Shown piece after piece: positions 10,019-52,408 of a stretch of 64,000 nt of DNA. Below the pieces are notes generated by a model. It was not told the origin of the DNA. It saw only the letters and a list, made by a program, of their open reading frames with translations, and ran no database searches. The DNA lies in assembly GCF_054482595.1 (NCBI RefSeq), contig NZ_CM137008.1, one strand, 5' to 3'. Both the position numbers and the translations under genes were made by a program. How positions within the stretch are numbered: the first letter of the stretch is position 1; the number at the start of each line of letters is the position of its first letter.

Positions 10019-10035
10019 TTCTTTTTTAACTCTCA

Positions 10036-10063
10036 CGCTTACCCTGAATATTCAGGGTAAGCG
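10036..10063. terminator. Perfect 13-bp-arm palindrome just downstream of maeB; possible terminator or protein-binding site (no clean U-tract)
   Basis: cgcttaccctgaa-ta-ttcagggtaagcg, 18 nt after the maeB stop. Confidence 0.4.
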
Positions 10064-10308
10064 GTCCAGCTGCAATATATTAGTAAAGCTTATTACTGAG
10101 TTTACGAATAATAAAAAAAGCAATATAAAATATCTCGATATTATTTTATTTATATTCATGCGTCGCATATGAAAGTTTATTCATAACAGTAAATATCTCT
10201 CCATTCTTAGTGATCTACCTCACCTTTTAAACGCGCTTGCCGAATTTTGTTATTTACTCTGACGAAAAATTGTCACGATACACGCAAGTTTTTCACAGGC
10301 GGCGACTC

Positions 10309-10644
10309 ATGGATAAAGAACGCATCATTCAGGAATTTGTGCCCGGCAAACAGGTCACACTGGCGCATCTCATCGCGCATCCCGGCGAGGAACTGGCGAA
10401 GAAAATCGGCGTTCCGGATGCTGGCGCAATCGGCATTATGACGTTAACTCCTGGCGAAACGGCGATGATCGCCGGTGATTTAGCACTGAAAGCCGCCGAT
10501 GTGCATATCGGTTTTCTCGACCGTTTTAGCGGCGCGCTGGTGATTTATGGCTCGGTGGGTGCAGTAGAAGAAGCATTATCACAAACCGTCAGTGGTTTAG
10601 GTCGCTTATTAAATTATACGCTTTGTGAAATGACCAAAAGTTAA
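10309..10644 (+). CDS. eutS: Ethanolamine-utilisation microcompartment shell protein EutS
   Basis: 111 aa from ATG 10309 ([15 protein letters not shown]...); BMC-domain protein; first gene of the eut operon, preceded by an AT-rich promoter region. Confidence 0.9.
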
Positions 10645-10656
10645 TACGAGGCATTC

Positions 10657-11136
10657 ATGAAACGAATTGCGTTTGTGGGTACCGTCGGGGCAGGAAAAAC
10701 AACGTTATTTAATGCGTTGCAGGGGAATTATACCTTCGCCAGAAAAACACAGGCCGTGGAATTTAATGATAAGGGCGATATTGATACGCCGGGTGAATAT
10801 TTTAGCCATCCCCGCTGGTATCACGCCTTAATTACCACGCTACAGGATGTGGACATGCTGATCTATGTCCACGGCGCAAATGACCCGGAAAGTCGGTTGC
10901 CTGCCGGGTTGCTGGATATTGGCGTCAGCAAACGGCAAATCGCCGTCATCAGTAAAACGGACATGCCAGATGCTGACGTCGCCGCAACGCGAAAGTTATT
11001 GCTTGAGACGGGCTTCGAAGAGCCGATTTTCGAGCTAAACAGCCACGACCCGCAAAGCGTGCAGCAACTGGTGGATTATCTGGCATCTCTCACCAAACAG
11101 GAGGAAGCAGGTGAAAAAACTCATCACAGCGAATGA
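10657..11136 (+). CDS. eutP: EutP, P-loop NTPase (acetate kinase-type) of the eut operon
   Basis: 159 aa, Walker A GTVGAGKTT. Confidence 0.9.
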   Translation: MKRIAFVGTVGAGKTTLFNALQGNYTFARKTQAVEFNDKGDIDTPGEYFSHPRWYHALITTLQDVDMLIYVHGANDPESRLPAGLLDIGVSKRQIAVISKTDMPDADVAATRKLLLETGFEEPIFELNSHDPQSVQQLVDYLASLTKQEEAGEKTHHSE

Positions 11137-11812
11137 TATTCGTGAAGCACACGCGCGCGGCGAACAGGCAATGTCCGTGGTTCTGCGCGCCAGCATTATT
11201 ACCCCGGAAGCCCGAGAAGTGGCGGATTTACTGGGTTTTACCATCACCGAATGTGATGAATCGATCCCGGTAACGGCGTCCGTGCCCGCCAGCGTGCCAG
11301 CCGATAAAACCGAAAGCCAGCGCATCCGCGAAACCATCATTGCCCAGCTGCCGGAAGGCCAGTTTACCGAAAGCCTGGTCGCGCAGCTGATGGAAAAAGT
11401 GATGAAGGAAAAACAGTCGCTGGAGCAGGGTGCAATGCAGCCGAGCTTTAAATCGGTGACCGGCAAAGGCGGCATCAAAGTTATTGATGGTAGCAGCGTC
11501 AAGTTTGGTCGCTTTGATGGCGCACAACCGCATTGCGTGGGCTTGACTGATCTTGTGACCGGAGACGACGGCAGCAGCATGGCCGCCGGTTTTATGCAGT
11601 GGGAGAACGCATTCTTCCCGTGGACCCTGAACTACGACGAAATCGACATGGTGCTGGAAGGGGAGCTGCATGTTCGCCACGCAGGCGAAACCATGATCGC
11701 TAAAGCAGGCGACGTGATGTTTATCCCGAAAGGCTCCAGCATCGAATTTGGTACGACATCCAGCGTGAAATTCCTGTATGTCGCCTGGCCGGCTAACTGG
11801 CAATCCCTATGA
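11111..11812 (+). CDS. eutQ: EutQ, cupin-fold ethanolamine-utilisation protein (acetate kinase activity)
   Basis: 233-aa ORF; start overlaps the eutP 3' end by 26 nt. Confidence 0.88.
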   Translation: MKKLITANDIREAHARGEQAMSVVLRASIITPEAREVADLLGFTITECDESIPVTASVPASVPADKTESQRIRETIIAQLPEGQFTESLVAQLMEKVMKEKQSLEQGAMQPSFKSVTGKGGIKVIDGSSVKFGRFDGAQPHCVGLTDLVTGDDGSSMAAGFMQWENAFFPWTLNYDEIDMVLEGELHVRHAGETMIAKAGDVMFIPKGSSIEFGTTSSVKFLYVAWPANWQSL

Positions 11813-12612
11813 AAGATTTCATCACCGAAGCATGGCTAAGAGCGAACCATACGCTCAGCGAAGGCGCAGAGATCCATCTCCCTGCGGACAGTCGCCTGAC
11901 GCCCTCTGCCCGGGAGTTGCTGGAAAGCCGCCATCTGCGCATCAAGTTTATTGACGAGCAGGGCCGCCTGTTTGTTGACGATGAACAGCAGCAGCCGCAG
12001 CCCGTTCATGGGCTGACCAGCAGCGATGAACATCCGCAGGCGTGCTGCGAACTGTGCCGCCAGCCGGTGGCAAAAAAGCCGGATACGCTGACTCACCTGT
12101 CGGCGGAAAAAATGGTCGCCAAAAGCGATCCGCGCCTGGGTTTTCGCGCGGTTCTCGACAGCACCATTGCGCTGGCAGTGTGGCTGCAAATTGAACTGGC
12201 GGAACCGTGGCAGCCGTGGCTTGCGGATATGCGTTCGCGTCTTGGCAACATTATGCGTGCCGATGCGCTGGGGGAACCGCTGGGCGATCAAGCGATTGTC
12301 GGGCTTTCTGACGAAGATCTGCATCGGCTTTCTCATCAGCCGCTGCGTTATCTTGGTCACGATCATCTGGTGCCGGAAGCCAGCCACGGGCGCGATGCGG
12401 CGTTGCTGAATCTGCTACGCACCAAAGTGCGGGAAACCGAAACCGTAGCGGCGCAGGTGTTTATCACTCGCAGCTTTGAAGTATTACGCCCGGATATCTT
12501 GCAGGCGCTGAACCGCCTTTCCAGCACGGTCTACGTGATGATGATCCTGAGCGTAACGAAGCCGCCGCTAACGGTGAAGCAGATCCAACAACGACTGGGG
12601 GAAACGCAATGA
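11809..12612 (+). CDS. eutT: EutT, ATP:cob(I)alamin adenosyltransferase
   Basis: 267 aa; ATGA overlap with the eutQ stop; conserved Cys cluster (CCELC). Confidence 0.9.
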
Positions 12613-13625
12613 TTATTGAACGTTGTCGTGAACTGGCGTTGCGAGCGCCCGCCAGAGTGGTTTTTCCGGATGCGTTAGATCAACGTGTGCTGAAAGCGGC
12701 GCAATATTTACATCAACAAGGTCTGGCAACGCCCATTCTGGTCGCCAATCCGTTTGAACTTCGTCAGTTTGCGCTCAGTCATGGCGTAGCGATGGACGGG
12801 CTACAGGTGATTGATCCGCATGGCAACCTCGCAATGCGGGAAGAATTTGCTCAGCATTGGTTGGCCCGTGCGGGCGAAAAAACGCCGCCGGATGCGCTGG
12901 AAAAACTCACCGAACCGCTGATGTTCGCCGCCGCAATGGTCAGCGCCGGTAAAGCGGATGTCTGTATCGCGGGCAACCTCTCTTCCACGGCGAATGTGCT
13001 GCGTGCCGGATTACGCATTATTGGCTTGCAGCCTGGCTGTAAAACGCTCTCATCCATTTTCCTGATGCTGCCACAGTACAGCGGTCCGGCGTTGGGTTTT
13101 GCCGATTGCAGCGTGGTGCCACAGCCGACGGCGGCGCAGCTGGCGGATATCGCACTTGCCAGCGCTGAAACCTGGCGCGCCATCACCGGAGAAGAGCCGC
13201 GCGTGGCGATGTTGTCGTTTTCCAGCAACGGTAGCGCCCGTCACCCCTGCGTAGCCAACGTCCAGCAGGCGACAGAAATCGTCCGTGAGCGCGCGCCGCA
13301 GCTGGTAGTCGATGGCGAGTTGCAGTTTGACGCCGCCTTCGTGCCGGAAGTGGCGGCGCAAAAAGCGCCTGCCAGCCCGCTACAGGGCAAGGCCAATGTG
13401 ATGGTTTTTCCGTCGCTGGAAGCCGGAAATATTGGCTACAAAATCGCACAACGACTCGGCGGATATCGTGCCGTCGGGCCATTGATACAAGGACTTGCCG
13501 CGCCGATGCACGATCTCTCTCGTGGTTGTAGCGTGCAGGAAATTATCGAGCTGGCGCTGGTGGCAGCTGTGCCGCGTCAGACAGAAATGAACCGCGAAAG
13601 CAGTTTACAAACACTGGTTGAATGA
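12609..13625 (+). CDS. eutD: EutD, phosphotransacetylase
   Basis: 338 aa; ATGA overlap with eutT; Pta-family sequence. Confidence 0.92.
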
Positions 13626-13663
13626 ACGGTCCCGTTCTGGACCCTGATAAAGAGGAAAGCACA

Positions 13664-13957
13664 ATGGAAGCATTAGGAATGATCGAAACCCGGGGCCTGG
13701 TTGCACTGATTGAGGCTTCTGACGCGATGGTGAAAGCTGCGCGCGTCAAGCTGGTTGGTGTTAAGCAGATTGGCGGCGGCCTGTGTACTGCCATGGTTCG
13801 TGGTGATGTTGCAGCCTGTAAAGCGGCGACCGATGCAGGTGCCGCAGCGGCACAGCGTATCGGCGAGCTGGTATCTGTACACGTTATCCCGCGTCCGCAC
13901 GGCGACCTGGAAGAAGTGTTCCCGATCGGCCTGAAAGGCGATAGCAGCAACCTGTAA
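13664..13957 (+). CDS. eutM: EutM, major BMC shell protein (hexamer)
   Basis: 97 aa from ATG 13664 ([28 protein letters not shown]...), canonical BMC domain; AGAGGAAAG RBS. Confidence 0.95.
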
Positions 13958-14063
13958 TCACCCTGTGTGACGTCGATTCGGGCGTCACGCTCTCTCATTT
14001 TTCATTTTACCTTCCGCGGAGGGTAGGGGGAGCTTTTACCTGAAATACGCCACGGAGGCGGGT

Positions 14064-14351
14064 ATGAAACTGGCAGTCGTCACTGGACAAATTGTTTGTA
14101 CCGTACGCCATCACGGACTGGCGCATGACAAATTGCTGATGGTGGAAATGATTGATCCACAAGGTAATCCTGACGGGCAATGTGCCGTCGCCATCGACAA
14201 TATTGGCGCGGGAACCGGGGAGTGGGTGTTGCTGGTGAGTGGCAGTTCCGCCCGCCAGGCGCATAAAAGCGAAACGTCACCGGTCGATCTGTGCGTGATT
14301 GGCATCGTCGATGAGGTGGTGTCTGGCGGTCAGGTAATTTTCCACAAATAA
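14064..14351 (+). CDS. eutN: EutN, BMC vertex (pentamer-type) shell protein
   Basis: 95 aa, MKLAVVTGQIVCTVRHHGL...; EutN/CcmL family. Confidence 0.92.
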   Translation: MKLAVVTGQIVCTVRHHGLAHDKLLMVEMIDPQGNPDGQCAVAIDNIGAGTGEWVLLVSGSSARQAHKSETSPVDLCVIGIVDEVVSGGQVIFHK

Positions 14352-14362
14352 GGCAGAACATC

Positions 14363-15766
14363 ATGAATCAACAGGATATTGAACAGGTGGTGAAAGCGGT
14401 ACTGCTGAAAATGCAAAGCAGTGACACGCCGCCCGCCGCCGTTCATGAGATGGGCGTTTTCGCGTCCCTGGATGACGCTGTTGCGGCAGCCAAAATTGCC
14501 CAGCAAGGGTTAAAGAGCGTGGCAATGCGCCAGTTAGCCATTGCTGCCATTCGTGAAGCAGGCGAAAAACACGCCAGAGATTTAGCGGAACTTGCCGTCA
14601 GTGAAACCGGCATGGGGCGCGTTGAAGATAAATTTGCAAAAAACGTCGCTCAGGCGCGCGGTACACCAGGCGTTGAGTGCCTCTCTCCGCAAGTGCTGAC
14701 TGGCGACAACGGCCTGACCCTAATTGAAAACGCACCCTGGGGCGTGGTGGCTTCGGTGACGCCTTCCACTAACCCGGCGGCAACCGTAATTAATAACGCC
14801 ATCAGCCTGATTGCCGCGGGCAACAGCGTCATTTTTGCCCCGCATCCGGCGGCGAAAAAAGTCTCCCAGCGGGCGATCACGCTGCTCAACCAGGCGATTG
14901 TTGCCGCAGGCGGGCCGGAAAACTTACTGGTTACTGTGGCAAATCCGGATATCGAAACCGCGCAACGCTTGTTCAAGTTTCCGGGTATCGGCCTGCTGGT
15001 GGTGACTGGCGGCGAAGCGGTAGTAGAAGCGGCGCGTAAACACACCAATAAACGTCTGATTGCCGCAGGCGCTGGCAACCCGCCGGTAGTGGTGGATGAA
15101 ACCGCTGACCTCGCCCGTGCTGCTCAGTCCATCGTCAAAGGCGCGTCTTTCGATAACAACATCATTTGTGCCGACGAAAAGGTACTGATTGTTGTTGATA
15201 GCGTAGCCGATGAACTGATGCGTCTGATGGAAGGCCAGCACGCGGTGAAACTGACCGCAGAACAGGCGCAGCAGCTGCAACCGGTGTTGCTGAAAAATAT
15301 CGACGAGCGCGGAAAAGGTACTGTCAGCCGTGACTGGGTAGGTCGCGATGCAGGCAAAATCGCGGCGGCAATCGGCCTTAAAGTTCCGCAAGAAACGCGC
15401 CTGCTGTTTGTGGAAACCACCGCAGAACATCCGTTTGCCGTGACTGAACTGATGATGCCGGTGTTGCCCGTCGTGCGCGTCGCCAACGTGGCGGATGCCA
15501 TTGCGCTGGCGGTGAAACTGGAAGGCGGTTGCCACCACACGGCGGCAATGCACTCGCGCAATATCGAGAACATGAACCAGATGGCGAATGCCATTGATAC
15601 CAGCATTTTCGTTAAGAACGGACCGTGCATTGCCGGGCTGGGGCTGGGCGGGGAAGGCTGGACCACCATGACCATCACCACGCCAACCGGTGAAGGGGTA
15701 ACCAGCGCGCGGACGTTTGTCCGTCTGCGTCGCTGTGTATTAGTCGATGCGTTTCGCATTGTTTAA
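14363..15766 (+). CDS. eutE: EutE, CoA-acylating acetaldehyde dehydrogenase
   Basis: 467 aa; aldehyde dehydrogenase family with N-terminal encapsulation-peptide-like region. Confidence 0.95.
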   Translation: MNQQDIEQVVKAVLLKMQSSDTPPAAVHEMGVFASLDDAVAAAKIAQQGLKSVAMRQLAIAAIREAGEKHARDLAELAVSETGMGRVEDKFAKNVAQARGTPGVECLSPQVLTGDNGLTLIENAPWGVVASVTPSTNPAATVINNAISLIAAGNSVIFAPHPAAKKVSQRAITLLNQAIVAAGGPENLLVTVANPDIETAQRLFKFPGIGLLVVTGGEAVVEAARKHTNKRLIAAGAGNPPVVVDETADLARAAQSIVKGASFDNNIICADEKVLIVVDSVADELMRLMEGQHAVKLTAEQAQQLQPVLLKNIDERGKGTVSRDWVGRDAGKIAAAIGLKVPQETRLLFVETTAEHPFAVTELMMPVLPVVRVANVADAIALAVKLEGGCHHTAAMHSRNIENMNQMANAIDTSIFVKNGPCIAGLGLGGEGWTTMTITTPTGEGVTSARTFVRLRRCVLVDAFRIV

Positions 15767-15776
15767 GGAGTAACAG

Positions 15777-16613
15777 ATGGCGCACGACGAACAATGGCTC
15801 ACCCCACGTCTGCAAACGGCGGCAACGCTGTGTAACCAGACGCCCGCCGCGACGGAATCTCCGCTGTGGCTGGGGGTGGATCTGGGCACCTGCGATGTGG
15901 TGTCGATGGTTGTCGACCGCGACGGTCAGCCGGTGGCGGTATGCCTCGACTGGGCCGATGTGGTTCGCGACGGCATCGTCTGGGATTTCTTCGGCGCGGT
16001 CACCATTGTTCGTCGCCATCTTGACACGCTCGAGCAGCAATTCGGTCGTCGTTTTAGCCATGCGGCGACTTCATTTCCTCCAGGTACGGACCCGCGTATT
16101 TCCATCAACGTGCTGGAATCTGCCGGGCTGGAAGTGAGCCATGTGCTGGATGAGCCAACCGCAGTCGCGGATCTGCTGCAACTGGATAACGCAGGCGTAG
16201 TGGATATCGGCGGTGGCACTACCGGCATTGCCATCGTGAAAAAGGGCAAAGTGACGTACTCGGCGGATGAAGCCACCGGCGGACATCACATCTCTCTGAC
16301 TCTCGCCGGAAATCGCCGTATTCCGCTGGAAGAGGCAGAGCAGTACAAGCGCGGTCACGGTGAAGAGATTTGGCCTGCGGTGAAACCGGTGTACGAAAAA
16401 ATGGCGGACATTGTCGCCCGGCATATTGAAGGGCAGGGCATTACTGATTTATGGCTGGCGGGCGGCTCCTGTATGCAACCGGGCGTGGCAGAACTGTTTC
16501 GCAAACAATTCCCGGCGTTACAGGTGCATTTACCGCAGCACAGTTTGTTTATGACCCCGCTGGCGATCGCCAGTAGTGGGCGAGAGAAAGCGGAGGGGCT
16601 ATATGCAAAATGA
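15777..16613 (+). CDS. eutJ: EutJ, DnaK/actin-fold chaperone-like protein
   Basis: 278 aa; ATPase-fold motifs (LGVDLGTCDV, DIGGGTTGIA). Confidence 0.9.
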   Translation: MAHDEQWLTPRLQTAATLCNQTPAATESPLWLGVDLGTCDVVSMVVDRDGQPVAVCLDWADVVRDGIVWDFFGAVTIVRRHLDTLEQQFGRRFSHAATSFPPGTDPRISINVLESAGLEVSHVLDEPTAVADLLQLDNAGVVDIGGGTTGIAIVKKGKVTYSADEATGGHHISLTLAGNRRIPLEEAEQYKRGHGEEIWPAVKPVYEKMADIVARHIEGQGITDLWLAGGSCMQPGVAELFRKQFPALQVHLPQHSLFMTPLAIASSGREKAEGLYAK

Positions 16614-17790
16614 ATTGCAGACCGCGCTCTTTCAGGCGTTCGATACCCTGAATCTGCAACGGGTAAAAACATTTAGCGTTCCACCGGTGACGCTTTGCGG
16701 TCCGGGCTCGGTGAGCAGTTGCGGACAGCAAGCGCAAACGCGTGGGCTGAAACATCTGTTCGTGATGGCAGACAGCTTTTTGCATCAGGCAGGGATGACC
16801 GCCGGGCTGACGCGTAGCCTGGCCGTTAAAGGTATCGCCATGACGCTCTGGCCATGTCCGGTGGGCGAACCGTGCATTACCGACGTGTGTGCAGCCGTGG
16901 CGCAGTTGCGTGAGTCAGGTTGTGACGGGGTGATCGCATTTGGCGGCGGCTCGGTGCTGGATGCGGCGAAAGCCGTGGCGTTGCTGGTGACGAACCCGGA
17001 TAGCACGCTGGCAGAGATGTCAGAAACCAGCGTTCTGCAACCGCGCTTGCCGCTGATTGCCATTCCAACTACCGCCGGAACCGGCTCTGAAACCACCAAT
17101 GTAACGGTGATTATCGACGCGGTGAGCGGGCGCAAGCAGGTGTTAGCCCATGCCTCGCTGATGCCGGATGTGGCGATCCTCGACGCCGCATTGACCGAAG
17201 GTGTGCCGTCGCATGTCACGGCGATGACCGGCATTGATGCGTTAACCCATGCCATTGAAGCATACAGCGCCCTGAACGCTACACCGTTTACCGACAGTCT
17301 GGCGATTGGTGCCATTGCGATGATTGGCAAATCGCTGCCGAAAGCGGTGGGCTACGGTCACGACCTTGCCGCGCGCGAGAGCATGTTGCTGGCTTCATGT
17401 ATGGCGGGAATGGCGTTTTCCAGTGCGGGTCTTGGGTTGTGCCACGCGATGGCGCATCAGCCGGGCGCGGCGCTGCATATTCCGCACGGTCTGGCGAACG
17501 CTATGTTGCTGCCAACGGTGATGGAGTTTAACCGGATGGTATGTCGCGAACGCTTTAGTCAGATTGGTCGGGCACTGCGAACTAAAAAATCCGACGATCG
17601 TGACGCTATTAACGCGGTAAGTGAGCTGATTGCGGAAGTTGGGATTGGTAAACGACTGGGCGATGTTGGCGCGACATCTGCGCATTACGGTGCATGGGCG
17701 CAGGCCGCGCAGGAAGATATTTGTCTGCGCAGCAACCCGCGTACCGCCAGCCTGGAACAGATTGTCGGCCTGTACGCGGCGGCGCAATAA
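16603..17790 (+). CDS. eutG: EutG, iron-containing alcohol dehydrogenase
   Basis: 395 aa from ATG 16603 (MQNELQTALF...); overlaps the eutJ 3' end by 11 nt. Confidence 0.9.
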   Translation: MQNELQTALFQAFDTLNLQRVKTFSVPPVTLCGPGSVSSCGQQAQTRGLKHLFVMADSFLHQAGMTAGLTRSLAVKGIAMTLWPCPVGEPCITDVCAAVAQLRESGCDGVIAFGGGSVLDAAKAVALLVTNPDSTLAEMSETSVLQPRLPLIAIPTTAGTGSETTNVTVIIDAVSGRKQVLAHASLMPDVAILDAALTEGVPSHVTAMTGIDALTHAIEAYSALNATPFTDSLAIGAIAMIGKSLPKAVGYGHDLAARESMLLASCMAGMAFSSAGLGLCHAMAHQPGAALHIPHGLANAMLLPTVMEFNRMVCRERFSQIGRALRTKKSDDRDAINAVSELIAEVGIGKRLGDVGATSAHYGAWAQAAQEDICLRSNPRTASLEQIVGLYAAAQ

Positions 17791-17792
17791 AT

Positions 17793-17857
17793 GCCGCGTC
17801 TTATCCGGTCTGTGGGATTGCACATGTAGTGCGGATAAGGCTTCACGCAGCATCCGC
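17793..17857. repeat. Degenerate REP element(s) in the eutG-eutH intergenic spacer, inside the operon
   Basis: gtagtgcggataaggcttcacgcagcatccgc resembles the REP consensus gtaggccggataaggcgttcacgccgcatccggc; a second partial copy lies upstream. Confidence 0.5.
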
Positions 17858-17889
17858 TAATAAATAACAACTAACAGGGAGTAAAGGCG

Positions 17890-19116
17890 ATGGGAATTAA
17901 CGAAATCATCATGTACATCATGATGTTCTTTATGCTGATAGCTGCCGTAGACAGGATCCTGTCACAGTTCGGCGGTTCTGCTCGTTTCCTCGGTAAGTTC
18001 GGTAAAAGTATCGAAGGATCAGGCGGTCAGTTCGAAGAAGGCTTTATGGCAATGGGCGCTCTGGGTCTGGCGATGGTCGGTATGACCGCGCTGGCACCGG
18101 TACTGGCTCACGTACTCGGGCCGGTAATTATCCCGGTTTACGAAATGCTCGGCGCAAACCCGTCAATGTTCGCCGGAACGCTGCTGGCGTGCGATATGGG
18201 CGGCTTCTTCCTCGCCAAAGAGCTGGCGGGCGGCGACGTAGCAGCGTGGCTATACTCTGGGTTAATTCTCGGGTCGATGATGGGGCCAACGATTGTGTTT
18301 TCCATTCCGGTGGCGCTCGGCATTATCGAACCTTCTGACCGTCGTTATCTGGCGCTCGGCGTGCTGGCGGGCATTGTGACCATTCCGATTGGTTGTATCG
18401 CTGGTGGTCTGGTAGCTATGTACTCCGGTGTTCAGATCAACGGCCAGCCGGTGGAATTCACTTTCGCCCTGATCCTGATGAACATGATCCCGGTGATCAT
18501 TGTTGCGATTCTGGTGGCGCTGGGGCTGAAATTCATCCCGGAAAAAATGATCAACGGCTTCCAGATCTTCGCCAAATTCCTCGTTGCATTGATCACCCTC
18601 GGTCTTGCCGCTGCGGTAGTGAAATTCCTGCTTGGCTGGGAACTGATCCCCGGTCTGGATCCTATCTTTATGGCCCCTGGCGATAAACCCGGTGAGGTGA
18701 TGCGCGCCATTGAAGTTATCGGTTCTATCTCCTGCGTTCTGTTAGGGGCGTATCCGATGGTGCTGCTGCTGACCCGCTGGTTTGAAAAACCGCTGATGAG
18801 CGTCGGTAAGGTACTGAATATGAACAACATCGCGGCAGCCGGCATGGTGGCAACGCTTGCCAACAACATTCCGATGTTCGGCATGATGAAGCAGATGGAT
18901 ACCCGCGGCAAAGTGATCAACTGCGCCTTCGCCGTTTCCGCGGCTTTCGCCCTGGGCGACCACTTAGGCTTCGCCGCTGCCAACATGAACGCCATGATCT
19001 TCCCGATGATTGTCGGCAAATTGATCGGCGGCGTAACGGCGATTGGCGTGGCGATGATGCTGGTGCCAAAAGAAGACGCGACCACGGCTAAAACCGAAGC
19101 GGAGGCGCAATCGTGA
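17890..19116 (+). CDS. eutH: EutH, ethanolamine permease (multi-pass membrane protein)
   Basis: 408 aa, highly hydrophobic. Confidence 0.92.
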   Translation: MGINEIIMYIMMFFMLIAAVDRILSQFGGSARFLGKFGKSIEGSGGQFEEGFMAMGALGLAMVGMTALAPVLAHVLGPVIIPVYEMLGANPSMFAGTLLACDMGGFFLAKELAGGDVAAWLYSGLILGSMMGPTIVFSIPVALGIIEPSDRRYLALGVLAGIVTIPIGCIAGGLVAMYSGVQINGQPVEFTFALILMNMIPVIIVAILVALGLKFIPEKMINGFQIFAKFLVALITLGLAAAVVKFLLGWELIPGLDPIFMAPGDKPGEVMRAIEVIGSISCVLLGAYPMVLLLTRWFEKPLMSVGKVLNMNNIAAAGMVATLANNIPMFGMMKQMDTRGKVINCAFAVSAAFALGDHLGFAAANMNAMIFPMIVGKLIGGVTAIGVAMMLVPKEDATTAKTEAEAQS

Positions 19117-20516
19117 ACACTCGCCAGCTATTGAGCGTCGGTATCGATATCGGCACCACCACCACCCAGGTGATTTTCTCCCACCTGGAGCTGGTTAACC
19201 GTGCGGCGGTGTCGCAGGTGCCGCGCTACGAATTCATTAAACGCGAAATTAGCTGGCAAAGTCCGGTGTTCTTTACCCCTGTCGATAAACAGGGCGGTTT
19301 AAAAGAAGCGGAACTGAAAACCTTAATACTCGAGCAATATCAGGCTGCGGGTATTGAGCCGGAAAGCGTTGATTCTGGTGCCATCATCATCACCGGTGAA
19401 AGCGCGAAAACCCGCAATGCTCGCCCGGCGGTGATGGCGCTCTCTCAGTCGCTGGGCGATTTTGTCGTTGCCAGCGCCGGGCCGCACCTCGAATCCGTGA
19501 TCGCCGGTCACGGAGCCGGGGCACAAACCCTTTCTGAACAACGGCTGTGTCGGGTACTGAATATCGACATCGGCGGTGGCACCGCGAACTACGCCCTGTT
19601 CGATGCCGGAAAAATCAGCGGCACCGCCTGCCTCAACGTCGGTGGTCGCCTGCTGGAAACCGACAGCCAGGGGCGCGTGGTTTACGCTCATAAACCGGGG
19701 CAGATGATTGTGGATGAGTGCTTCGGTGCAGGCACTGACGTCCGTTCGCTGACCGGCGCGCAGCTGGTGCAGGTTACCCGGCGGATGGCAGAACTGATTG
19801 TCGAAGTGATTGACGGAACGCTCTCACCGCTCGCGCAGGCATTGATGCAAACCGGTTTGCTGCCCGCAGGTGTTACGCCCGAAATCATTACGCTTTCTGG
19901 CGGCGTGGGCGAATGTTATCGCCACCAGCCCGCCGACCCGTTCTGTTTTGCCGATATTGGCCCGCTGCTGGCAACGGCGCTGCATGACCATCCGCGCCTG
20001 CGTGAGATGAACGTACAGTTTCCGGCGCAAACCGTGCGCGCCACGGTGATTGGCGCGGGCGCGCATACCCTTTCGCTCTCTGGCAGCACAATCTGGCTTG
20101 AGGGCGTACAACTGCCGCTGCGCAATTTGCCGGTGGCGATCCCGATTGATGAAACGGATCTGGTGGGTGCCTGGCAACAGGCGCTGATTCAGCTGGATCT
20201 TGATCCCAAAACTGACGCGTACGTGCTGGCGCTTCCCGCCTCGCTGCCTGTGCGTTACGCCGCGGTACTGACGGTCATCAACGCGTTGGTCGATTTCGTC
20301 GCGCGTTTTCCGAATCCGCATCCCCTGCTGGTGGTGGCCGGGCAGGACTTTGGTAAAGCTCTGGGCATGTTGTTGCGCCCACAGCTACAACAACTCCCGT
20401 TGGCAGTCATTGACGAAGTGATTGTCCGCGCGGGGGACTATATCGACATTGGTACGCCTCTTTTTGGCGGATCGGTTGTGCCGGTGACGGTGAAATCACT
20501 CGCATTTCCTTCCTGA
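19113..20516 (+). CDS. eutA: EutA, reactivating factor for ethanolamine ammonia-lyase
   Basis: 467 aa; GTG start overlapping the eutH stop (GTGA). Confidence 0.9.
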   Translation: MNTRQLLSVGIDIGTTTTQVIFSHLELVNRAAVSQVPRYEFIKREISWQSPVFFTPVDKQGGLKEAELKTLILEQYQAAGIEPESVDSGAIIITGESAKTRNARPAVMALSQSLGDFVVASAGPHLESVIAGHGAGAQTLSEQRLCRVLNIDIGGGTANYALFDAGKISGTACLNVGGRLLETDSQGRVVYAHKPGQMIVDECFGAGTDVRSLTGAQLVQVTRRMAELIVEVIDGTLSPLAQALMQTGLLPAGVTPEIITLSGGVGECYRHQPADPFCFADIGPLLATALHDHPRLREMNVQFPAQTVRATVIGAGAHTLSLSGSTIWLEGVQLPLRNLPVAIPIDETDLVGAWQQALIQLDLDPKTDAYVLALPASLPVRYAAVLTVINALVDFVARFPNPHPLLVVAGQDFGKALGMLLRPQLQQLPLAVIDEVIVRAGDYIDIGTPLFGGSVVPVTVKSLAFPS

Positions 20517-20527
20517 GGGAACGACTT

Positions 20528-21889
20528 ATGAAACTAAAGACCACATTGTTCGGCAATGTATATCAGTTTAAGGATGTAAAAGAGGTGCTGGCTAAAGCCA
20601 ACGAACTGCGTTCGGGGGATGTGCTGGCGGGCGTCGCAGCGGCAAGCTCACAGGAGCGCGTGGCGGCAAAGCAGGTGTTGTCGGAAATGACCGTAGCGGA
20701 CATCCGCAATAATCCGGTGATTGCCTATGAAGATGACTGCGTGACGCGGCTGATTCAGGACGATGTTAACGAAACGGCCTACAACCAGATTAAAAACTGG
20801 AGCATCAGCGAACTGCGTGAGTATGTGCTGAGCGATGAAACCAGCGTGGACGACATTGCCTTTACCCGCAAAGGGCTGACCTCGGAAGTGGTCGCGGCGG
20901 TAGCGAAGATTTGCTCCAACGCGGACCTGATCTACGGCGCGAAGAAAATGCCGGTAATCAAAAAGGCCAATACCACCATCGGTATTCCGGGCACCTTCAG
21001 CGCCCGTTTGCAGCCAAATGACACCCGTGACGACGTGCAAAGTATCGCCGCGCAAATCTACGAAGGGCTTTCCTTCGGGGTGGGCGATGCGGTGATCGGC
21101 GTCAACCCGGTAACTGACGACGTGGAAAACTTAAGCCGCGTGCTGGACACCATCTATGGCGTGATCGACAAATTCAACATCCCAACTCAGGGCTGCGTAC
21201 TGGCGCACGTCACCACCCAGATCGAAGCGATTCGTCGTGGCGCACCAGGCGGGCTGATTTTCCAGAGTATCTGTGGCAGTGAAAAAGGGCTGAAAGAGTT
21301 TGGCGTGGAACTGGCGATGCTCGACGAAGCGCGCGCAGTGGGTGCAGAGTTCAACCGTATCGCCGGGGAAAACTGCCTCTACTTCGAAACCGGACAAGGC
21401 TCTGCGCTGTCGGCGGGTGCCAACTACGGCGCAGACCAGGTGACCATGGAAGCGCGTAACTACGGGCTGGCGCGTCATTACGATCCGTTTATCGTCAACA
21501 CCGTGGTCGGCTTTATTGGGCCGGAGTATCTCTACAATGACCGCCAGATTATTCGTGCGGGCTTAGAAGATCACTTTATGGGTAAGCTGAGCGGCATCTC
21601 TATGGGCTGTGACTGCTGCTACACCAACCACGCTGACGCTGACCAGAACCTCAACGAAAACCTGATGATCCTGCTCGCCACCGCAGGCTGCAACTACATC
21701 ATGGGGATGCCGCTGGGCGATGACATCATGCTCAACTACCAGACCACGGCCTTCCACGACACCGCCACTGTGCGTCAGTTACTCAACCTGCGCCCGTCAC
21801 CGGAGTTTGAACGCTGGCTGGAAAGTATGGGCATTATGGCAAACGGTCGCCTGACCAAACGGGCGGGCGATCCGTCACTGTTCTTCTGA
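20528..21889 (+). CDS. eutB: EutB, ethanolamine ammonia-lyase large subunit
   Basis: 453 aa; starts 11 bp after the eutA stop. Confidence 0.95.
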   Translation: MKLKTTLFGNVYQFKDVKEVLAKANELRSGDVLAGVAAASSQERVAAKQVLSEMTVADIRNNPVIAYEDDCVTRLIQDDVNETAYNQIKNWSISELREYVLSDETSVDDIAFTRKGLTSEVVAAVAKICSNADLIYGAKKMPVIKKANTTIGIPGTFSARLQPNDTRDDVQSIAAQIYEGLSFGVGDAVIGVNPVTDDVENLSRVLDTIYGVIDKFNIPTQGCVLAHVTTQIEAIRRGAPGGLIFQSICGSEKGLKEFGVELAMLDEARAVGAEFNRIAGENCLYFETGQGSALSAGANYGADQVTMEARNYGLARHYDPFIVNTVVGFIGPEYLYNDRQIIRAGLEDHFMGKLSGISMGCDCCYTNHADADQNLNENLMILLATAGCNYIMGMPLGDDIMLNYQTTAFHDTATVRQLLNLRPSPEFERWLESMGIMANGRLTKRAGDPSLFF

Positions 21890-21909
21890 TGACGCGGAGA
21901 TAACACATC

Positions 21910-22797
21910 ATGGATCAAAAACAGATTGAAGAAATTGTACGCAGCGTGATGGCGTCAATGGGACAAACGGCCCCCGCGCCGTCAGAAGCAAAGTGCGCCA
22001 CTACCACCTGTGCGGCACCGGTGACCTCGGAAAGCTGCGCGCTGGATTTAGGTTCCGCTGAAGCAAAAGCGTGGATTGGTGTTGAAAACCCACATCGTGC
22101 GGATGTGTTAACAGAACTGCGTCGCAGCACCGTGGCCCGCGTTTGTACCGGTCGTGCCGGTCCGCGTCCGCGTACCCAGGCGTTGCTGCGTTTCCTGGCC
22201 GATCACTCTCGTTCGAAAGATACCGTACTTAAAGAAGTGCCGGAAGAGTGGGTGAAAGCGCAGGGCTTGCTGGAAGTACGCTCCGAAATTAGCGACAAAA
22301 ATCTCTACCTGACTCGCCCGGATATGGGCCGCCGCCTGTGTGCAGAAGCTGTTGAAGCGCTGAAAGCACAGTGTGTTGCTAATCCGGACGTACAGGTCGT
22401 TATTTCTGATGGCCTGTCAACTGATGCCATCACTGTGAACTACGAAGAGATCCTGCCGCCGCTGATGGCGGGCCTGAAACAGGCCGGGCTGAAAGTCGGC
22501 ACGCCATTCTTTGTTCGTTATGGTCGCGTGAAGATTGAAGATCAGATCGGTGAGATCCTCGGCGCGAAAGTGGTGATCCTGCTGGTGGGGGAACGTCCGG
22601 GGTTAGGGCAGTCAGAAAGCCTCTCCTGCTACGCCGTTTACTCGCCGCGTATGGCGACCACCGTTGAGGCCGATCGCACCTGCATCTCTAACATTCACCA
22701 GGGCGGCACGCCGCCGGTTGAAGCCGCAGCCGTCATTGTGGATTTGGCGAAACGTATGCTGGAGCAGAAAGCATCCGGCATCAACATGACCCGATAA
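21910..22797 (+). CDS. eutC: EutC, ethanolamine ammonia-lyase small subunit
   Basis: 295 aa; N-terminal [17 protein letters not shown] is an encapsulation-peptide-like helix. Confidence 0.95.
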
Positions 22798-22806
22798 GGA
22801 GGCATC

Positions 22807-23466
22807 ATGCCAGCTTTAGATTTGATTCGACCGTCGGTAACCGCCATGCGGGTGATTGCCTCCGTTAACGCCGAATTTGCGCGTGAACTGAAATTGCCGC
22901 CGCATATTCGTAGCCTCGGGCTGATTTCTGCTGATTCCGATGACGTCACCTACATTGCCGCTGATGAAGCGACCAAGCAGGCGATGGTGGAAGTGGTGTA
23001 TGGCCGCTCGCTGTATGCGGGCGCTGCACACGGCCCGTCACCGACTGCCGGTGAAGTGCTGATTATGCTTGGTGGGCCAAACCCGGCGGAAGTGCGTGCC
23101 GGTCTGGATGCGATGGTTGCGCATATTGAAAATGGCGCTGCTTTCCAGTGGGCTAATGATGCGCAAGATACGGCATTCCTGGCACATGTAGTTTCGCGTA
23201 CCGGTTCTTATCTCTCATCAACCGCCGGGATCACGCTTGGCGATCCGATGGCGTATCTGGTGGCACCGCCGCTGGAAGCGACCTACGGCATTGATGCAGC
23301 GTTGAAATCTGCCGACGTACAGCTGGTGACCTATGTCTCGCCACCGTCTGAAACCAACTACTCGGCAGCATTTTTAACCGGTAGCCAGGCAGCGTGTAAA
23401 GCGGCCTGTAACGCCTTTACCGATGCAGTGCTGGAAATCGCGCGTAATCCAATCCAGCGTGCGTAA
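22807..23466 (+). CDS. eutL: EutL, BMC shell protein (tandem-BMC trimer)
   Basis: 219 aa. Confidence 0.95.
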
Positions 23467-23478
23467 TGGAGGTTGCCG

Positions 23479-23979
23479 ATGATCAATGCACTGGGATTGC
23501 TGGAAGTGGACGGCATGGTCGCTGCGATAGATGCAGCGGATGCCATGCTCAAAGCAGCTAACGTTCGTCTGCTCAGTCACGAAGTGCTTGACCCTGGTCG
23601 CTTAACGCTGGTGGTGGAAGGCGATCTAGCGGCGTGTCGTGCGGCGCTGGACGCAGGTTGTGCTGCCGCGATGCGTACCGGGCGTGTCATCAGCCGTAAG
23701 GAGATCGGTCGGCCAGACGATGACACCCAGTGGCTGGTTACTGGCTTTAACCGCCAGCCGAAGCAACCCGTAAAGGAACCCGACGCGCCAGTTATCGTCG
23801 CGGAATCTGCTGACGAGTTGTTGGCGCTGTTAACATCAGTACGTCAGGGAATGACGGCAGGAGAAGTGGCTGCCCACTTTGGCTGGCCGCTGGAAAAAGC
23901 CAGAAATGCGCTCGAACAGCTCTTTTCTGCCGGGACGTTACGTAAACGCAGTAGTCGTTATCGTCTCAAGCCCCATTAA
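23479..23979 (+). CDS. eutK: EutK, BMC shell protein with C-terminal helix-turn-helix-like extension
   Basis: 166 aa from ATG 23479 (MINALGLLEVDGMVAAIDAADAMLKAA...); GGAGG RBS at 23468-23472. Confidence 0.9.
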   Translation: MINALGLLEVDGMVAAIDAADAMLKAANVRLLSHEVLDPGRLTLVVEGDLAACRAALDAGCAAAMRTGRVISRKEIGRPDDDTQWLVTGFNRQPKQPVKEPDAPVIVAESADELLALLTSVRQGMTAGEVAAHFGWPLEKARNALEQLFSAGTLRKRSSRYRLKPH

Positions 23980-24024
23980 CCTGTCGGAGGTGCCGGGTGT
24001 CCTACAACACCCGGCATTAACATC

Positions 24025-25077
24025 ATGAAAAAGACCCGTACAGCCAATTTGCACCATCTTTATCATGAACCCTTACCCGAAAACCTGAAGCTCACGCCGA
24101 AGGTCGAAGTGGATAATGTTCATCAACGACAGACAACGGATGTCTATGAACATGCTTTGACGATTACCGCCTGGCAGCAGATTTACGATCAGCTGCATCC
24201 GGGCAAGTTTCATGGTGAATTTACGGAAATTCTACTCGATGATATTCAGGTTTTTCGTGAATACACCGGTCTGGCGCTGCGTCAGTCGTGTCTGGTCTGG
24301 CCGAACTCGTTCTGGTTTGGCATTCCGGCGACGCGCGGTGAGCAGGGATTTATCGGTTCGCAATGTCTGGGAAGCGCAGAAATAGCGACGCGCCCTGGTG
24401 GAACCGAGTTTGAATTAAGTACGCCGGACGATTACACGATCCTGGGCGTAGTGCTTTCTGAAGATGTCATCACCCGGCAGGCTAACTTTTTGCATAATCC
24501 GGATCGGGTATTACATATGTTGCGTAGCCAGTCGGCGCTGGAAGTGAAAGAGCAGCATAAAGCCGCGCTGTGGGGCTTTGTCCAACAGGCGCTGGCGACG
24601 TTTTGCGAGAACCCGGAAAATCTTCATCAGCCTGCAGTGCGAAAAGTGCTGGGGGATAATTTGCTAATGGCGATGGGGGCGATGCTGGAAGAAGCGCAGC
24701 CAATGGTGACGGCGGAAAGCATCAGTCATCAGAGTTACCGTCGGTTGCTTTCCCGCGCCCGTGAATATGTGCTGGAAAACATGTCCGAACCGGTGACGGT
24801 GCTGGACTTGTGTAATCAACTGCATGTCAGCCGCCGCACGCTACAAAACGCGTTTCACGCTATTTTAGGAATTGGCCCGAACGCGTGGCTGAAACGCATT
24901 CGCCTGAACGCCGTACGCCGCGAACTGATAAGCCCGTGGTCGCAAAGCACAACGGTAAAAGACGCCGCCATGCAGTGGGGATTCTGGCATCTGGGGCAAT
25001 TTGCCACGGATTACCAGCAGCTGTTTGCCGAGAAGCCGTCGTTGACGTTGCATCAGCGGATGCGGGAATGGGGGTGA
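24025..25077 (+). CDS. eutR: EutR, AraC-family activator of the eut operon
   Basis: 350 aa; C-terminal AraC-type HTH; last gene of the eut cluster. Confidence 0.92.
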
Positions 25078-25082
25078 GGGAG

Positions 25083-25985
<903 letters not shown>

Positions 25986-44154: not shown

Positions 44155-44486
44155 TGTATTTCCCCAACTTATAGGTTTAGTGTTGTGGAACTAAAGTCTA
44201 GCCTGGCGGTTCGACTTTAGCCTGTATTGTTAGCGCCAGTTTTTAACAGACGCGACGCACGAAGAGCGCAATACAGTCCATTGCTGGCGGGTGTTGACCG
44301 CTGACGTTTCGTACGTCATTAAACATTATGCCGCTAAAGGAAGAATTGAACCAAATCATAAAATCGATTCAGCTTTGGCTTTTCCTGTAACGATTAATTT
44401 CGCGCATCAAAATAATTAGTCTGGTTAAATACCAGTTCCGACAGGCTGAATCAATGCCAGGAGGGGCGAAAGTTTGAAGCAGGCCA

Positions 44487-51073: not shown

Positions 51074-52000
51074 ATGAATTATTCTTTAAAACAATTAAAG
51101 GTTTTCGTCACAGTAGCGCAGGAGAAAAGTTTTAGTCGTGCAGGAGAGCGTATCGGCCTGAGCCAGTCGGCAGTAAGTCACAGTGTGAAGGAGCTGGAAA
51201 ATCATACTGGTGTTCGCCTGCTGGACAGAACCACGCGTGAAGTGGTGCTTACAGATGCAGGGCAGCAGTTGGCTTTGCGTCTTGAGCGACTGCTGGATGA
51301 ACTTAACAGCACGTTGCGCGATACCGGGCGTATGGGGCAACAACTGAGCGGAAAAGTTCGGGTCGCTGCCAGCCAGACCATTTCCGCGCATCTTATTCCG
51401 CAATGCATTGCTGAAAGCCATCGCCGCTATCCAGATATTCAGTTTGTCCTGCACGATCGTCCGCAGCAGTGGGTGATGGAAAGTATTCGCCAGGGAGATG
51501 TCGACTTTGGCATCGTCATCGATCCAGGCCCAGTGGGCGATCTGCAATGTGAAGCGATTCTTTCCGAGCCTTTCTTTCTGCTTTGCCATCGGGATAGCGC
51601 TTTGGCCGCGGAAGATTATGTACCCTGGCAGGCATTACAGGGAGCGAAATTGGTGTTGCAGGATTACGCGTCAGGCAGCCGACCGCTGATTGACGCAGCG
51701 CTGGCGCGCAATGGTATTCAGGCGAATATTGTGCAGGAGATTGGACATCCGGCGACGCTATTCCCGATGGTAGCCGCAGGCATCGGCATCAGTATTCTTC
51801 CCGCACTGGCGCTACCATTGCCTGAAGGTAGCCCGCTGGTGGTAAAGCGCATTACGCCGGTTGTTGAACGCCAGTTGATGCTGGTGCGCAGGAAGAACCG
51901 TTCACTTTCCACCGCCGCTGAAGCGTTATGGGACGTGGTACGAGACCAGGGCAATGCGCTAATGGCTGGGCGGGAAGGGGATCCGTTGTATCAGATATAG
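51074..52000 (+). CDS. yfeR: LysR-family transcriptional regulator YfeR
   Basis: 308 aa; N-terminal HTH ([23 protein letters not shown]). Confidence 0.88.
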
Positions 52001-52332
52001 ATATCGATATGAGTCGTTTTTTCAACAGGATTTAGAAGGGATACATTCAGAGACAAACGCTGCTCTTTTTCCTGCGCCTTTTCTGCCTGCTGTCTCTGCA
52101 ACTGCGCCAGTTGTGTTTCCAGTAGGGTGATTTGCTGTTGAATCAATTCGGCCTGTTTTTGTTTGTCTTCAGCACTGCCGCTAGTGTCTACAATCTCTTT
52201 AATTTGTTGAGTGAGTTTGATGATTTGCTGACTTATCCGCGCGATTTGTGAAGCAACATCGCTACCTTGTGATGCCATGTTACTACTCTGTGTTTGTATG
52301 GAAGGAATTGAAGTTGAAGAGATAGTGGCCAT
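51991..52332 (-). CDS. FlxA-like small Gln-rich coiled-coil protein (hypothetical)
   Basis: 113-aa ORF; QQ-rich heptad-like region [35 protein letters not shown] resembles the prophage-associated FlxA family (recalled, not searched); overlaps the yfeR 3' end by 10 nt; start codon uncertain (internal Met at codon 19). Confidence 0.5.
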
Positions 52333-52408
52333 TGTTCAGTCCTCGTCACTGTACGAGGTAATATCGGTAGAAGAACAAGGAACTTGAGAAGAAAAATCAA
52401 TCTTACAA

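Follow-up and report, generated by a model that had tools for sequence, protein, structure and literature searches.

Positions 10309-25077 of the analyzed window (a stretch of DNA of 64,000 nucleotides) very probably hold an ordinary, uninterrupted 17-gene ethanolamine utilization (eut) microcompartment operon of the EUT1 type, located on an Escherichia coli chromosome. Seventeen open reading frames run along the + strand in the order eutS-P-Q-T-D-M-N-E-J-G-H-A-B-C-L-K-R. The same gene set and order had been proposed in an earlier sequence-only reading, and they were borne out by the open reading frames, by NCBIfam models and by the RefSeq annotation of the near-identical strain XH990, a urine isolate only 5 SNPs apart from the window, which carries the same 17 eut genes. 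Each of the 17 proteins matched its NCBIfam Eut model over the full length with a score above the curated cut-off. None of the genes contains an internal stop, and all 17 encoded lengths equal those of the MG1655 counterparts. Frameshifts and premature stops, which the earlier reading had named as grounds for abandoning it, were looked for in the window sequence, where 17 of 17 genes were full length and uninterrupted. Both the uninterrupted eut operon and the prophage exception in K-12 are already published, and the main finding contains nothing new. The features of the region are as follows.

10019-10308, + strand: maeB-eutS intergenic region, holding the maeB terminator hairpin (~10040-10068) and an AT-rich stretch; the EutR-dependent main promoter, P1, presumably lies here as well.
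10309-10644, + strand: eutS, BMC shell protein (bent hexamer), 111 aa; NF012012, 247 bits, aligned over 1-111 of 111; no amino acid differences from K-12; matches PDB 3i96.
10657-11136, + strand: eutP, acetate kinase/EutP-PduV GTPase-like protein, 159 aa; NF012011, 350 bits, full length.
11111-11812, + strand: eutQ, cupin-type acetate kinase, 233 aa, GTG start; NF012001, 500 bits, full length; overlaps eutP by 26 nt, and its coordinates agree with the RefSeq annotation.
11809-12612, + strand: eutT, corrinoid adenosyltransferase, 267 aa; NF011595, 564 bits; HX11CCX2C motif present, starting at residue 67.
12609-13625, + strand: eutD, phosphotransacetylase (Pta type), 338 aa; NF007233, 410 bits.
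13664-13957, + strand: eutM, major BMC-H shell protein, 97 aa; NF012018 covers residues 15-111 of a longer open reading frame; protein identical to K-12 EutM.
13958-14063, + strand: eutM-eutN spacer, with a GC-rich hairpin of 10 bp and its trailing T-run (13965-13990), then a second hairpin.
14064-14351, + strand: eutN, BMC-P vertex pentamer protein, 95 aa; NF011992, 210 bits; identical to K-12.
14363-15766, + strand: eutE, CoA-acylating acetaldehyde dehydrogenase, 467 aa; NF011927, 738 bits.
15777-16613, + strand: eutJ, DnaK/FtsA-like chaperone-type protein, 278 aa; NF011660, 402 bits.
16603-17790, + strand: eutG, Fe-dependent alcohol dehydrogenase, 395 aa; NF011998, 890 bits, residues 10-404 of a longer open reading frame.
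17791-17889, + strand: eutG-eutH spacer, with one REP/BIME unit.
17890-19116, + strand: eutH, ethanolamine permease, 408 aa; NF011665, 873 bits.
19113-20516, + strand: eutA, ethanolamine ammonia-lyase reactivase, 467 aa, GTG start; NF007991, 1071 bits.
20460-20620, + strand: block conserved at the nucleotide level, running from the 3' end of eutA through the 11-nt spacer, which holds the eutB Shine-Dalgarno GAGGGAA, into the 5' end of eutB.
20509-20516, + strand: unoccupied attachment core CTTCCTGA of CPZ-55/IntZ-type prophages, single copy, taking in the eutA stop codon.
20528-21889, + strand: eutB, ethanolamine ammonia-lyase large subunit, 453 aa; NF011649, 664 bits; full-length match to PDB 3abo (1018 bits); one amino acid difference from K-12.
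21910-22797, + strand: eutC, ethanolamine ammonia-lyase small subunit with N-terminal encapsulation peptide, 295 aa; NF003971, 340 bits.
22807-23466, + strand: eutL, BMC-T pseudohexameric shell protein, 219 aa; NF011934, 400 bits; PDB 3gfh/3i82.
23479-23979, + strand: eutK, BMC-H shell protein with a C-terminal helix-turn-helix domain, 166 aa; NF012010, 362 bits, aligned to residues 3-168 of a longer open reading frame.
24025-25077, + strand: eutR, AraC-family activator, 350 aa; NF007522, 790 bits; convergent with hemF, whose stop lies at 25083.

Three start positions were corrected, namely eutM to 13664 (giving 97 aa rather than the 111-aa open reading frame), eutG to 16603, in agreement with RefSeq, and eutK to 23479. 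The junctions had been described as tight or overlapping throughout. This holds for 12 of the 16, which are at most 20 nt long or overlap, but the eutD-eutM (38 nt), eutM-eutN (106 nt), eutG-eutH (99 nt) and eutK-eutR (45 nt) junctions are looser.

Assignment to the EUT1 type, found in the Enterobacteriaceae, was judged by gene content. The signature enzyme, adenosylcobalamin-dependent ethanolamine ammonia-lyase, is encoded by eutB and eutC (NF011649, NF003971). The shell set consists of the BMC-H proteins EutM and EutK, the permuted EutS, the BMC-T protein EutL and the BMC-P protein EutN, all matched at full length above cut-off (NF012018, NF012010, NF012012, NF011934 and NF011992, respectively). 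EutB, EutL and EutS in addition align along their whole length with E. coli proteins of solved crystal structure. The aldehyde core is formed by the acylating aldehyde dehydrogenase EutE (NF011927), the Pta-type EutD (NF007233/TIGR00651) and the alcohol dehydrogenase EutG (NF011998), with cofactor support from the reactivase EutA (NF007991) and the adenosyltransferase EutT (NF011595). Residues 1-19 of EutC, the N-terminal encapsulation peptide, are identical to K-12. The last gene encodes the AraC-family regulator EutR, rather than an EutVW two-component system with a B12 riboswitch. Consistent with this, an Rfam scan that covered the entire window and used gathering thresholds detected tRNAs and an RtT element only, with no match inside the eut operon, including to a cobalamin riboswitch.

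The eutA stop codon (20514-20516) is separated from the eutB ATG at 20528 by the 11-nt spacer GGGAACGACTT, so the 11-bp distance given in the sequence-only reading is correct (positions 20516 and 20528). That reading had also placed a prophage at this junction in K-12, and NC_000913.3 indeed annotates "cryptic prophage CPZ-55" at 2558691-2565480. In MG1655 the 6,790-bp prophage is flanked by the eutB start at 2558679 and the eutA stop at 2565481, and abuts the eutA stop codon. Comparison of the two eutA-eutB regions, proposed earlier as a check, showed K-12 to be interrupted by CPZ-55 and the window to be contiguous. The 8-bp core CTTCCTGA is duplicated around CPZ-55 in MG1655, as likewise reported in PMC6379469, and is present at both prophage junctions of YJ6, in which the site is occupied. 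In the window it occurs once, the 11-nt spacer is intact, and no integrase or foreign DNA lies between eutA and eutB. On these sequence features the window junction is the empty attachment site of CPZ-55/IntZ-type prophages, a site that has been termed a prophage insertion hot spot (PMC6652756).

The uninterrupted junction is supported as both the norm in E. coli and the ancestral state, with K-12 the exception, as judged from genome sequences. A contiguous eutA-eutB junction was found in 4,964 of 5,426 complete E. coli genomes (91.5%), and an intZ-type integrase adjoins eutB in only 393, with an element at the site in ~7-8%. The same 11-nt junction was present in 34 of 34 testable species-representative loci (Citrobacter, Klebsiella, Salmonella arizonae, Yokenella and others) and in 8 of 8 loci anchored on EutA, S. 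enterica and E. albertii among them. These make up 42 loci from other Enterobacteriaceae and Escherichia lineages. The 8 EutA-anchored loci were sampled via EutA homologues, as exact look-up of the EutM sequence, intended as an unbiased sample of other genera, returned E. coli-type contigs only. The earlier description of the operon as the ancestral prophage-free form is thus supported by the E. coli genomes and by the 42 of 42 empty loci.

Integrase-mediated excision leaves no scar, so an empty site alone is no proof of never having been occupied. Precise loss of CPZ-55 does occur among K-12 derivatives: over 5,160 bp NEB5-alpha shows 0 mismatches to MG1655 from which CPZ-55 has been precisely removed, and the W3110 stock of PMC11334477 is eut+. 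It is nevertheless very improbable that the empty junction arose by precise excision of a CPZ-55-like prophage once present in the lineage of the window. Given how few E. coli genomes carry an element at the site, and that every outgroup and other-lineage locus is empty, a history in which the site was never occupied is more parsimonious.

K-12 (MG1655/BW25113, b2437-b2462) is otherwise closely similar to the window, with the same 17 genes, gene order, maeB-hemF location and protein lengths, and with gene-by-gene nucleotide identities of 95.5-99.3%. Besides the 6.8-kb CPZ-55 (intZ, yffL-yffS) directly after the eutA stop with its duplicated CTTCCTGA, K-12 differs in the eutG-eutH spacer, which contains two tandem BIME units (216 nt) rather than the single unit of the window (99 nt). 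Spacer lengths of 99, 116, 216 and 632 nt were found in other E. coli. In Salmonella enterica, the EUT1 model system, the fetched eutG-eutH-eutA-eutB-eutC-eutL segment has the same gene order and 11-nt eutA-eutB spacer, and its sequence is identical to the window from ~-92 to +32 around the eutB start. EutA identity is ~90%, and EutC has 298 aa compared with 295 aa in the window. The full 17-gene order of Salmonella and its EutR/P1/P2 regulatory model are described in PMC5821096 and PMC11334477. Nissle 1917, uropathogenic isolates and eut+ K-12 (the W3110 stock and BW25113 eut+) share the uninterrupted architecture and show allelic differences only.

That the operon is fully functional is a well-founded expectation from the intact genes, from dN/dS and from published experiments on uninterrupted operons. 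Experiments on Nissle 1917, uropathogenic isolates and eut+ K-12 strains demonstrated eut induction, microcompartments and ethanolamine use with B12 (PMC7617246, PMC6652756, PMC11334477); E. coli with the operon in one piece can thus use ethanolamine when B12 is available. Uropathogenic E. coli both retain and express the operon (PMC6652756). Table 1 of PMC11334477 includes a W3110 eutC1-20-GFP fusion strain. In BW25113, CPZ-55 prevents eutB from being induced and microcompartments from forming (PMC7617246), and scarless removal of the prophage restored growth on ethanolamine as a nitrogen source (PMC11334477). Whether E. coli with an intact operon can live on ethanolamine as the only carbon source depends on the strain (PMC11334477 versus PMC7617246), and Nissle, uropathogenic and eut+ K-12 strains differ in this respect.

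Across the 17 genes there are 302 nucleotide and 39 amino acid differences from K-12, the latter including a non-conservative C160D substitution in EutT and four changes each in EutP, EutT, EutA and EutL. The maeB-eutS intergenic region is ~95% identical to K-12, with a few substitutions and small indels. Degraded eut genes do occur on other E. coli/Shigella-like contigs (L048, L049), where EutT has 243 aa, eutA is split and eutN is absent. One or more of the 39 substitutions, or a promoter change, could block microcompartment formation or lyase activity in the window operon, intact though it is in sequence. We consider such impairment highly unlikely. The dN/dS of the eut genes relative to K-12 is 0.049, indicating strong purifying selection, and all 17 full-length proteins score far above their cut-offs. 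Moreover, neither the metal motif of EutT nor the targeting peptide of EutC is altered; EutS, EutM and EutN are identical to K-12; and 271 sequenced genomes match the 3-kb eutA-eutB-eutC segment with an identity of 99% or more.

The expected mechanism of the functional operon is that established for Salmonella and E. coli, carried over to the window by sequence identity. EutR would be made at a low level from a weak promoter before eutR and, when ethanolamine and adenosylcobalamin are both present, would activate the main promoter upstream of eutS (the P1/EutR regulatory model is reviewed in PMC5821096). The resulting single long transcript would encode the shell proteins EutS, M, N, L and K, EutA as reactivase, EutT as adenosyltransferase, EutH as permease, and EutP, EutQ and EutJ as accessory proteins. 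Encoded on it as well, the lyase EutBC, with EutC bearing the N-terminal targeting peptide, would convert ethanolamine to acetaldehyde and ammonia, and EutE, EutD and EutG would convert acetaldehyde to acetyl-CoA, acetyl-phosphate or ethanol, with CoA and NAD recycled within the shell. As the attachment site is unoccupied, transcription and translation would continue uninterrupted from eutA into eutB, unlike in MG1655 and BW25113. E. coli does not synthesize B12 de novo, so the pathway would depend on imported corrinoid; Salmonella, unlike E. coli, synthesizes B12 anaerobically (cited in PMC7617246).

A scan for sigma-70 consensus sites found none upstream of eutS or eutR and one weak site only, inside eutN; the lack of a consensus upstream of eutS is expected of an activator-dependent promoter. 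The eutM-eutN spacer gave a terminator-like match with a fold energy of -41.9 kcal/mol (z -2.4). Its hairpin is conserved in K-12, and other genera have a hairpin or REP-like element at the equivalent position. A repeat search within the operon returned short, chance-level repeats only.

As a side observation, ~100-150 nt across the eutA/eutB junction are conserved between genera, synonymous sites included. This conservation is far stronger than in the sampled rest of the operon (eutJ to eutR), is seen also within E. coli, and may be novel. The CPZ-55 attachment core CTTCCTGA falls within the block. Tentatively, positions ~20460-20620 may form an undescribed cis-acting nucleotide element that sets EutBC output, whether by coupling or initiating translation, by being processed or by binding a protein or sRNA; if so, invariance of the junction would also explain its use as an IntZ-type prophage attachment site. 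Two candidates for the block were rejected. A stable RNA structure is not indicated by folding, which showed no excess structure for the + strand (z = +0.17) and a weak signal for the - strand (z = -1.88), and a 49-aa antisense open reading frame (20407-20556, TTG start) changes non-conservatively or is interrupted outside the invariant block. A permissive Rfam scan of 20300-20800 gave chance matches only (E > 3). Searching the literature for a promoter within the operon at eutA/eutB brought up only papers on the unrelated ectoine "eut" genes, and a CsrA-eut paper is silent on the junction.

An invariant junction that doubles as an attachment site could matter modestly, as a possible intra-operon control point for lyase expression, and its invariance offers a reason for the integration hot spot at eutA/eutB. 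The window strain is similar to an isolate from urine, and a link has been drawn between eut expression and growth in urine and gut. The main finding itself matters little beyond a reminder about K-12: this strain is atypical for ethanolamine metabolism, and gene models and metabolic reconstructions based on it therefore misrepresent most E. coli.

ORF calling gave 17 successive open reading frames at 10309-25077 on the plus strand, which an NCBIfam profile search identified, in order, as EutS, P, Q, T, D (Pta type), M, N, E, J, G, H, A, B, C, L, K and R. All 17 covered the expected Eut model from end to end, with scores well clear of the curated cut-off, bearing out the sequence-only reading of a 17-gene ethanolamine-utilization (eut) set in order on one strand. 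Compared gene by gene with MG1655, each eut gene has the length of its counterpart, lacks internal stops and is preceded by a plausible Shine-Dalgarno sequence. The window is E. coli chromosome, identical at 1-34000 to that of strain XH990 (urine, Zhejiang; NZ_CP019359.1), the RefSeq annotation of which lists the same 17 genes. Over the full 64 kb the two differ only by five SNPs (at 44463, 46997, 58765, 59583, and 61222), and the window therefore represents either a sibling isolate or a separate assembly of that clone. Profile alignment and RefSeq annotation placed three gene starts downstream of the first in-frame start codon:

13664, plus strand: true start of eutM
16603, plus strand: true start of eutG
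23479, plus strand: true start of eutK

The proposal that all junctions are tight or overlapping held for 12 of the 16, where gene spacing runs from -26 to +20 nt, but not for eutD-eutM (38 nt), eutM-eutN (106 nt), eutG-eutH (99 nt), and eutK-eutR (45 nt). The eutA stop codon ends at 20516 and the eutB ATG lies at 20528, giving the 11-nt spacer originally noted.

The MG1655 record annotates the "cryptic prophage CPZ-55" at 2558691-2565480, with the eutB start 11 nt from one end and the eutA stop codon adjoining the other. Alignment of the window with both prophage junctions of K-12 showed unbroken bacterial sequence in the window. The 8-bp attachment core CTTCCTGA (20509-20516), which holds the eutA stop codon, is present at both ends of CPZ-55 in K-12 and as a single copy in the window. 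CPZ-55 thus occupies this junction in K-12, as originally stated. The same 8-bp duplication has been described in a review, which reported CPZ-55 in 8% of 638 genomes (PMC6379469).

Site occupancy was counted in 5,426 complete E. coli genomes. The eutA-eutB junction was contiguous in 4,964 (91.5%) with a 160-nt query centered on it and in 4,966 with a 3-kb query; a K-12-like intZ-eutB junction was found in 393. In about half of these 393 the integrase is just 80-90% identical to that of K-12, indicating different elements at the same site. Strain YJ6 (NZ_AP023235.1, 13518-23820 of the segment compared) has another element of ∼10 kb between two CTTCCTGA cores, carrying IS1, murI (glutamate racemase), a gadC-like antiporter, a decarboxylase pseudogene, several hypothetical genes, and intZ. 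The eutB gene of YJ6 is annotated 24 nt shorter. An uninterrupted eut operon is an ordinary E. coli feature, wholly covered by existing literature. Intactness is common but not universal among E. coli-type assemblies; degraded operons were seen in some E. coli/Shigella-like assemblies (two contigs), with EutT cut to 243 amino acids, eutA broken into two parts, and no eutN called.

An empty site does not by itself prove a never-occupied lineage, since precise loss of CPZ-55 happens in laboratory lineages: the K-12 derivative NEB5-alpha F'Iq (NZ_CP053607.1, 2504501-2509660) matches MG1655 with CPZ-55 removed in silico with 0 mismatches over 5,160 bp. The ancestral state was read from outgroups. 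Searching a single genome of each species with a degenerate pattern of the first 16 eutB codons yielded 35 loci, including Citrobacter, Klebsiella, Salmonella arizonae, Pluralibacter, Pseudocitrobacter, Yokenella, Intestinirhabdus, and Escherichia lineages. All 34 with enough upstream sequence have the eutA stop, 11 nt, and the eutB ATG. Eight further loci, from S. enterica, E. albertii, Phytobacter, and other Enterobacterales at 79-87% EutA identity, were selected through EutA homologues and are thus independent of the eutB start; the layout is the same in all eight. The uninterrupted form is therefore ancestral, as the sequence-only reading had proposed.

The 17 genes differ from those of K-12 at 302 nucleotides, 39 of them amino acid-changing, with a dN/dS of 0.049 (Nei-Gojobori). 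EutS, EutM, and EutN are identical to their K-12 counterparts; EutB, with one residue changed, aligns from end to end with the crystallized E. coli enzyme, and EutL and EutS match E. coli crystal structures. Neither the HX11CCX2C motif of EutT nor the encapsulation peptide of EutC (its first 19 residues) carries a change. BW25113, which carries the prophage, shows neither eutB induction nor microcompartments, whereas Nissle 1917 shows both (PMC7617246). Scarless prophage removal restored growth of BW25113 on ethanolamine as a nitrogen source, and deletion of the operon from eut+ W3110 abolished such growth (PMC11334477). Whether ethanolamine can serve as sole carbon source depends on the strain; such use was absent in K-12 backgrounds (PMC11334477) and present in Nissle (PMC7617246). 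In the regulatory model set out in a review, EutR with ethanolamine and AdoCbl activates the main promoter P1, and a weak constitutive promoter, P2, precedes eutR (PMC5821096). Taken with these experiments on other strains, the sequence suggests that the operon in the window is functional, and the original interpretation of it is supported.

Two of the wider spacers contain recognizable elements:

13958-14063: eutM-eutN spacer; 10-bp GC-rich hairpin then T-run (13965-13990), then a second hairpin; fold z -2.4
17791-17889: eutG-eutH spacer; one REP/BIME unit by alignment with K-12

The eutM-eutN hairpin and T-run are kept in K-12; Citrobacter species have a related hairpin and other genera a REP-like palindrome instead. 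The hairpin may be an intra-operon attenuator or an mRNA stabilizer after the major shell gene. In K-12 the eutG-eutH spacer is 216 nt, with two BIME units from a 117-bp tandem duplication, as opposed to one unit in the window; other E. coli contigs have 99, 116, 216, or 632 nt. Outside the operon, the window lacks the xapR-xapB-xapA-yfeN genes of K-12 (∼4.4 kb, xanthosine catabolism) between yfeR and the valU-lysV tRNA cluster. In their place, near tRNA-Lys (lysV), are ∼404 bp (52002-52405), with these features:

51991-52332, minus strand: FlxA-like protein of 113 amino acids, encoded by the replacement segment
52452-52577: RtT-like element, adjoining the replacement segment

Of the nucleotide sequence sampled between eutJ and eutR, the block at the eutA-eutB junction (20460-20620), made up of the 3' end of eutA, the 11-nt spacer, and the 5' end of eutB, is the most conserved, whether genera of Enterobacteriaceae or genomes of E. 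coli are compared. A 26-nt sequence, TTTCCTTCCTGAGGGAACGACTTATG, is identical in 33 of 34 outgroup species, at EutA identities down to 83%. Of the columns in the outgroup alignment, a fraction of 0.93-0.98 is invariant between -65 and +24 (counted from the eutB ATG), versus 0.3-0.8 in the rest of eutA and eutB. With the Escherichia clade excluded, the junction is the top-scoring 60-nt window in the eutJ-eutB stretch and holds the sole one at least 0.88 invariant in the eutB-eutR stretch; no other eut gene start is comparably conserved (0.28-0.68). The conservation extends to synonymous sites: among codons with an invariant amino acid, 34 of 46 inside the block are themselves invariant versus 136 of 690 elsewhere (Fisher p = 4.5e-14), and 24 of 31 inside when the search-anchor codons are dropped (p = 3e-11). 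The EutA-anchored sample shows the same signal, which removes the concern over ascertainment: in all eight loci the bins from -65 to +24 reach or approach the maximum, with zero changes from about -92 to +32 in S. enterica and from about -100 to +8 in a lineage at 79% EutA identity. Within E. coli, 5,077 of 5,423 genomes match the window at 99% identity or more over the 160-nt junction, as against 1,719 of 5,412 for a 160-nt control in mid-eutA and 55 of 5,360 for one in mid-eutB.

RNA structure was considered as the cause, but the plus strand has no excess of folding (z = +0.17) and the minus strand only a weak one (z = -1.88); no Rfam family matched at 20300-20800. An antisense ORF was likewise rejected, not being conserved as protein. 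Our best guess, by inference, is that the block would serve eutB as a module for translation initiation or coupling, one of unusual reach; alternatively, it may be a processing site or a binding site. Whatever its role, it encloses the CPZ-55/IntZ attachment core CTTCCTGA. Dadswell et al. termed the eutA/eutB site a "prophage insertion hot spot" (PMC6652756).

Integrases tend to target invariant host sequence. The position of the attachment core agrees with this tendency, and the invariance of the block may account for the prophage hot spot.
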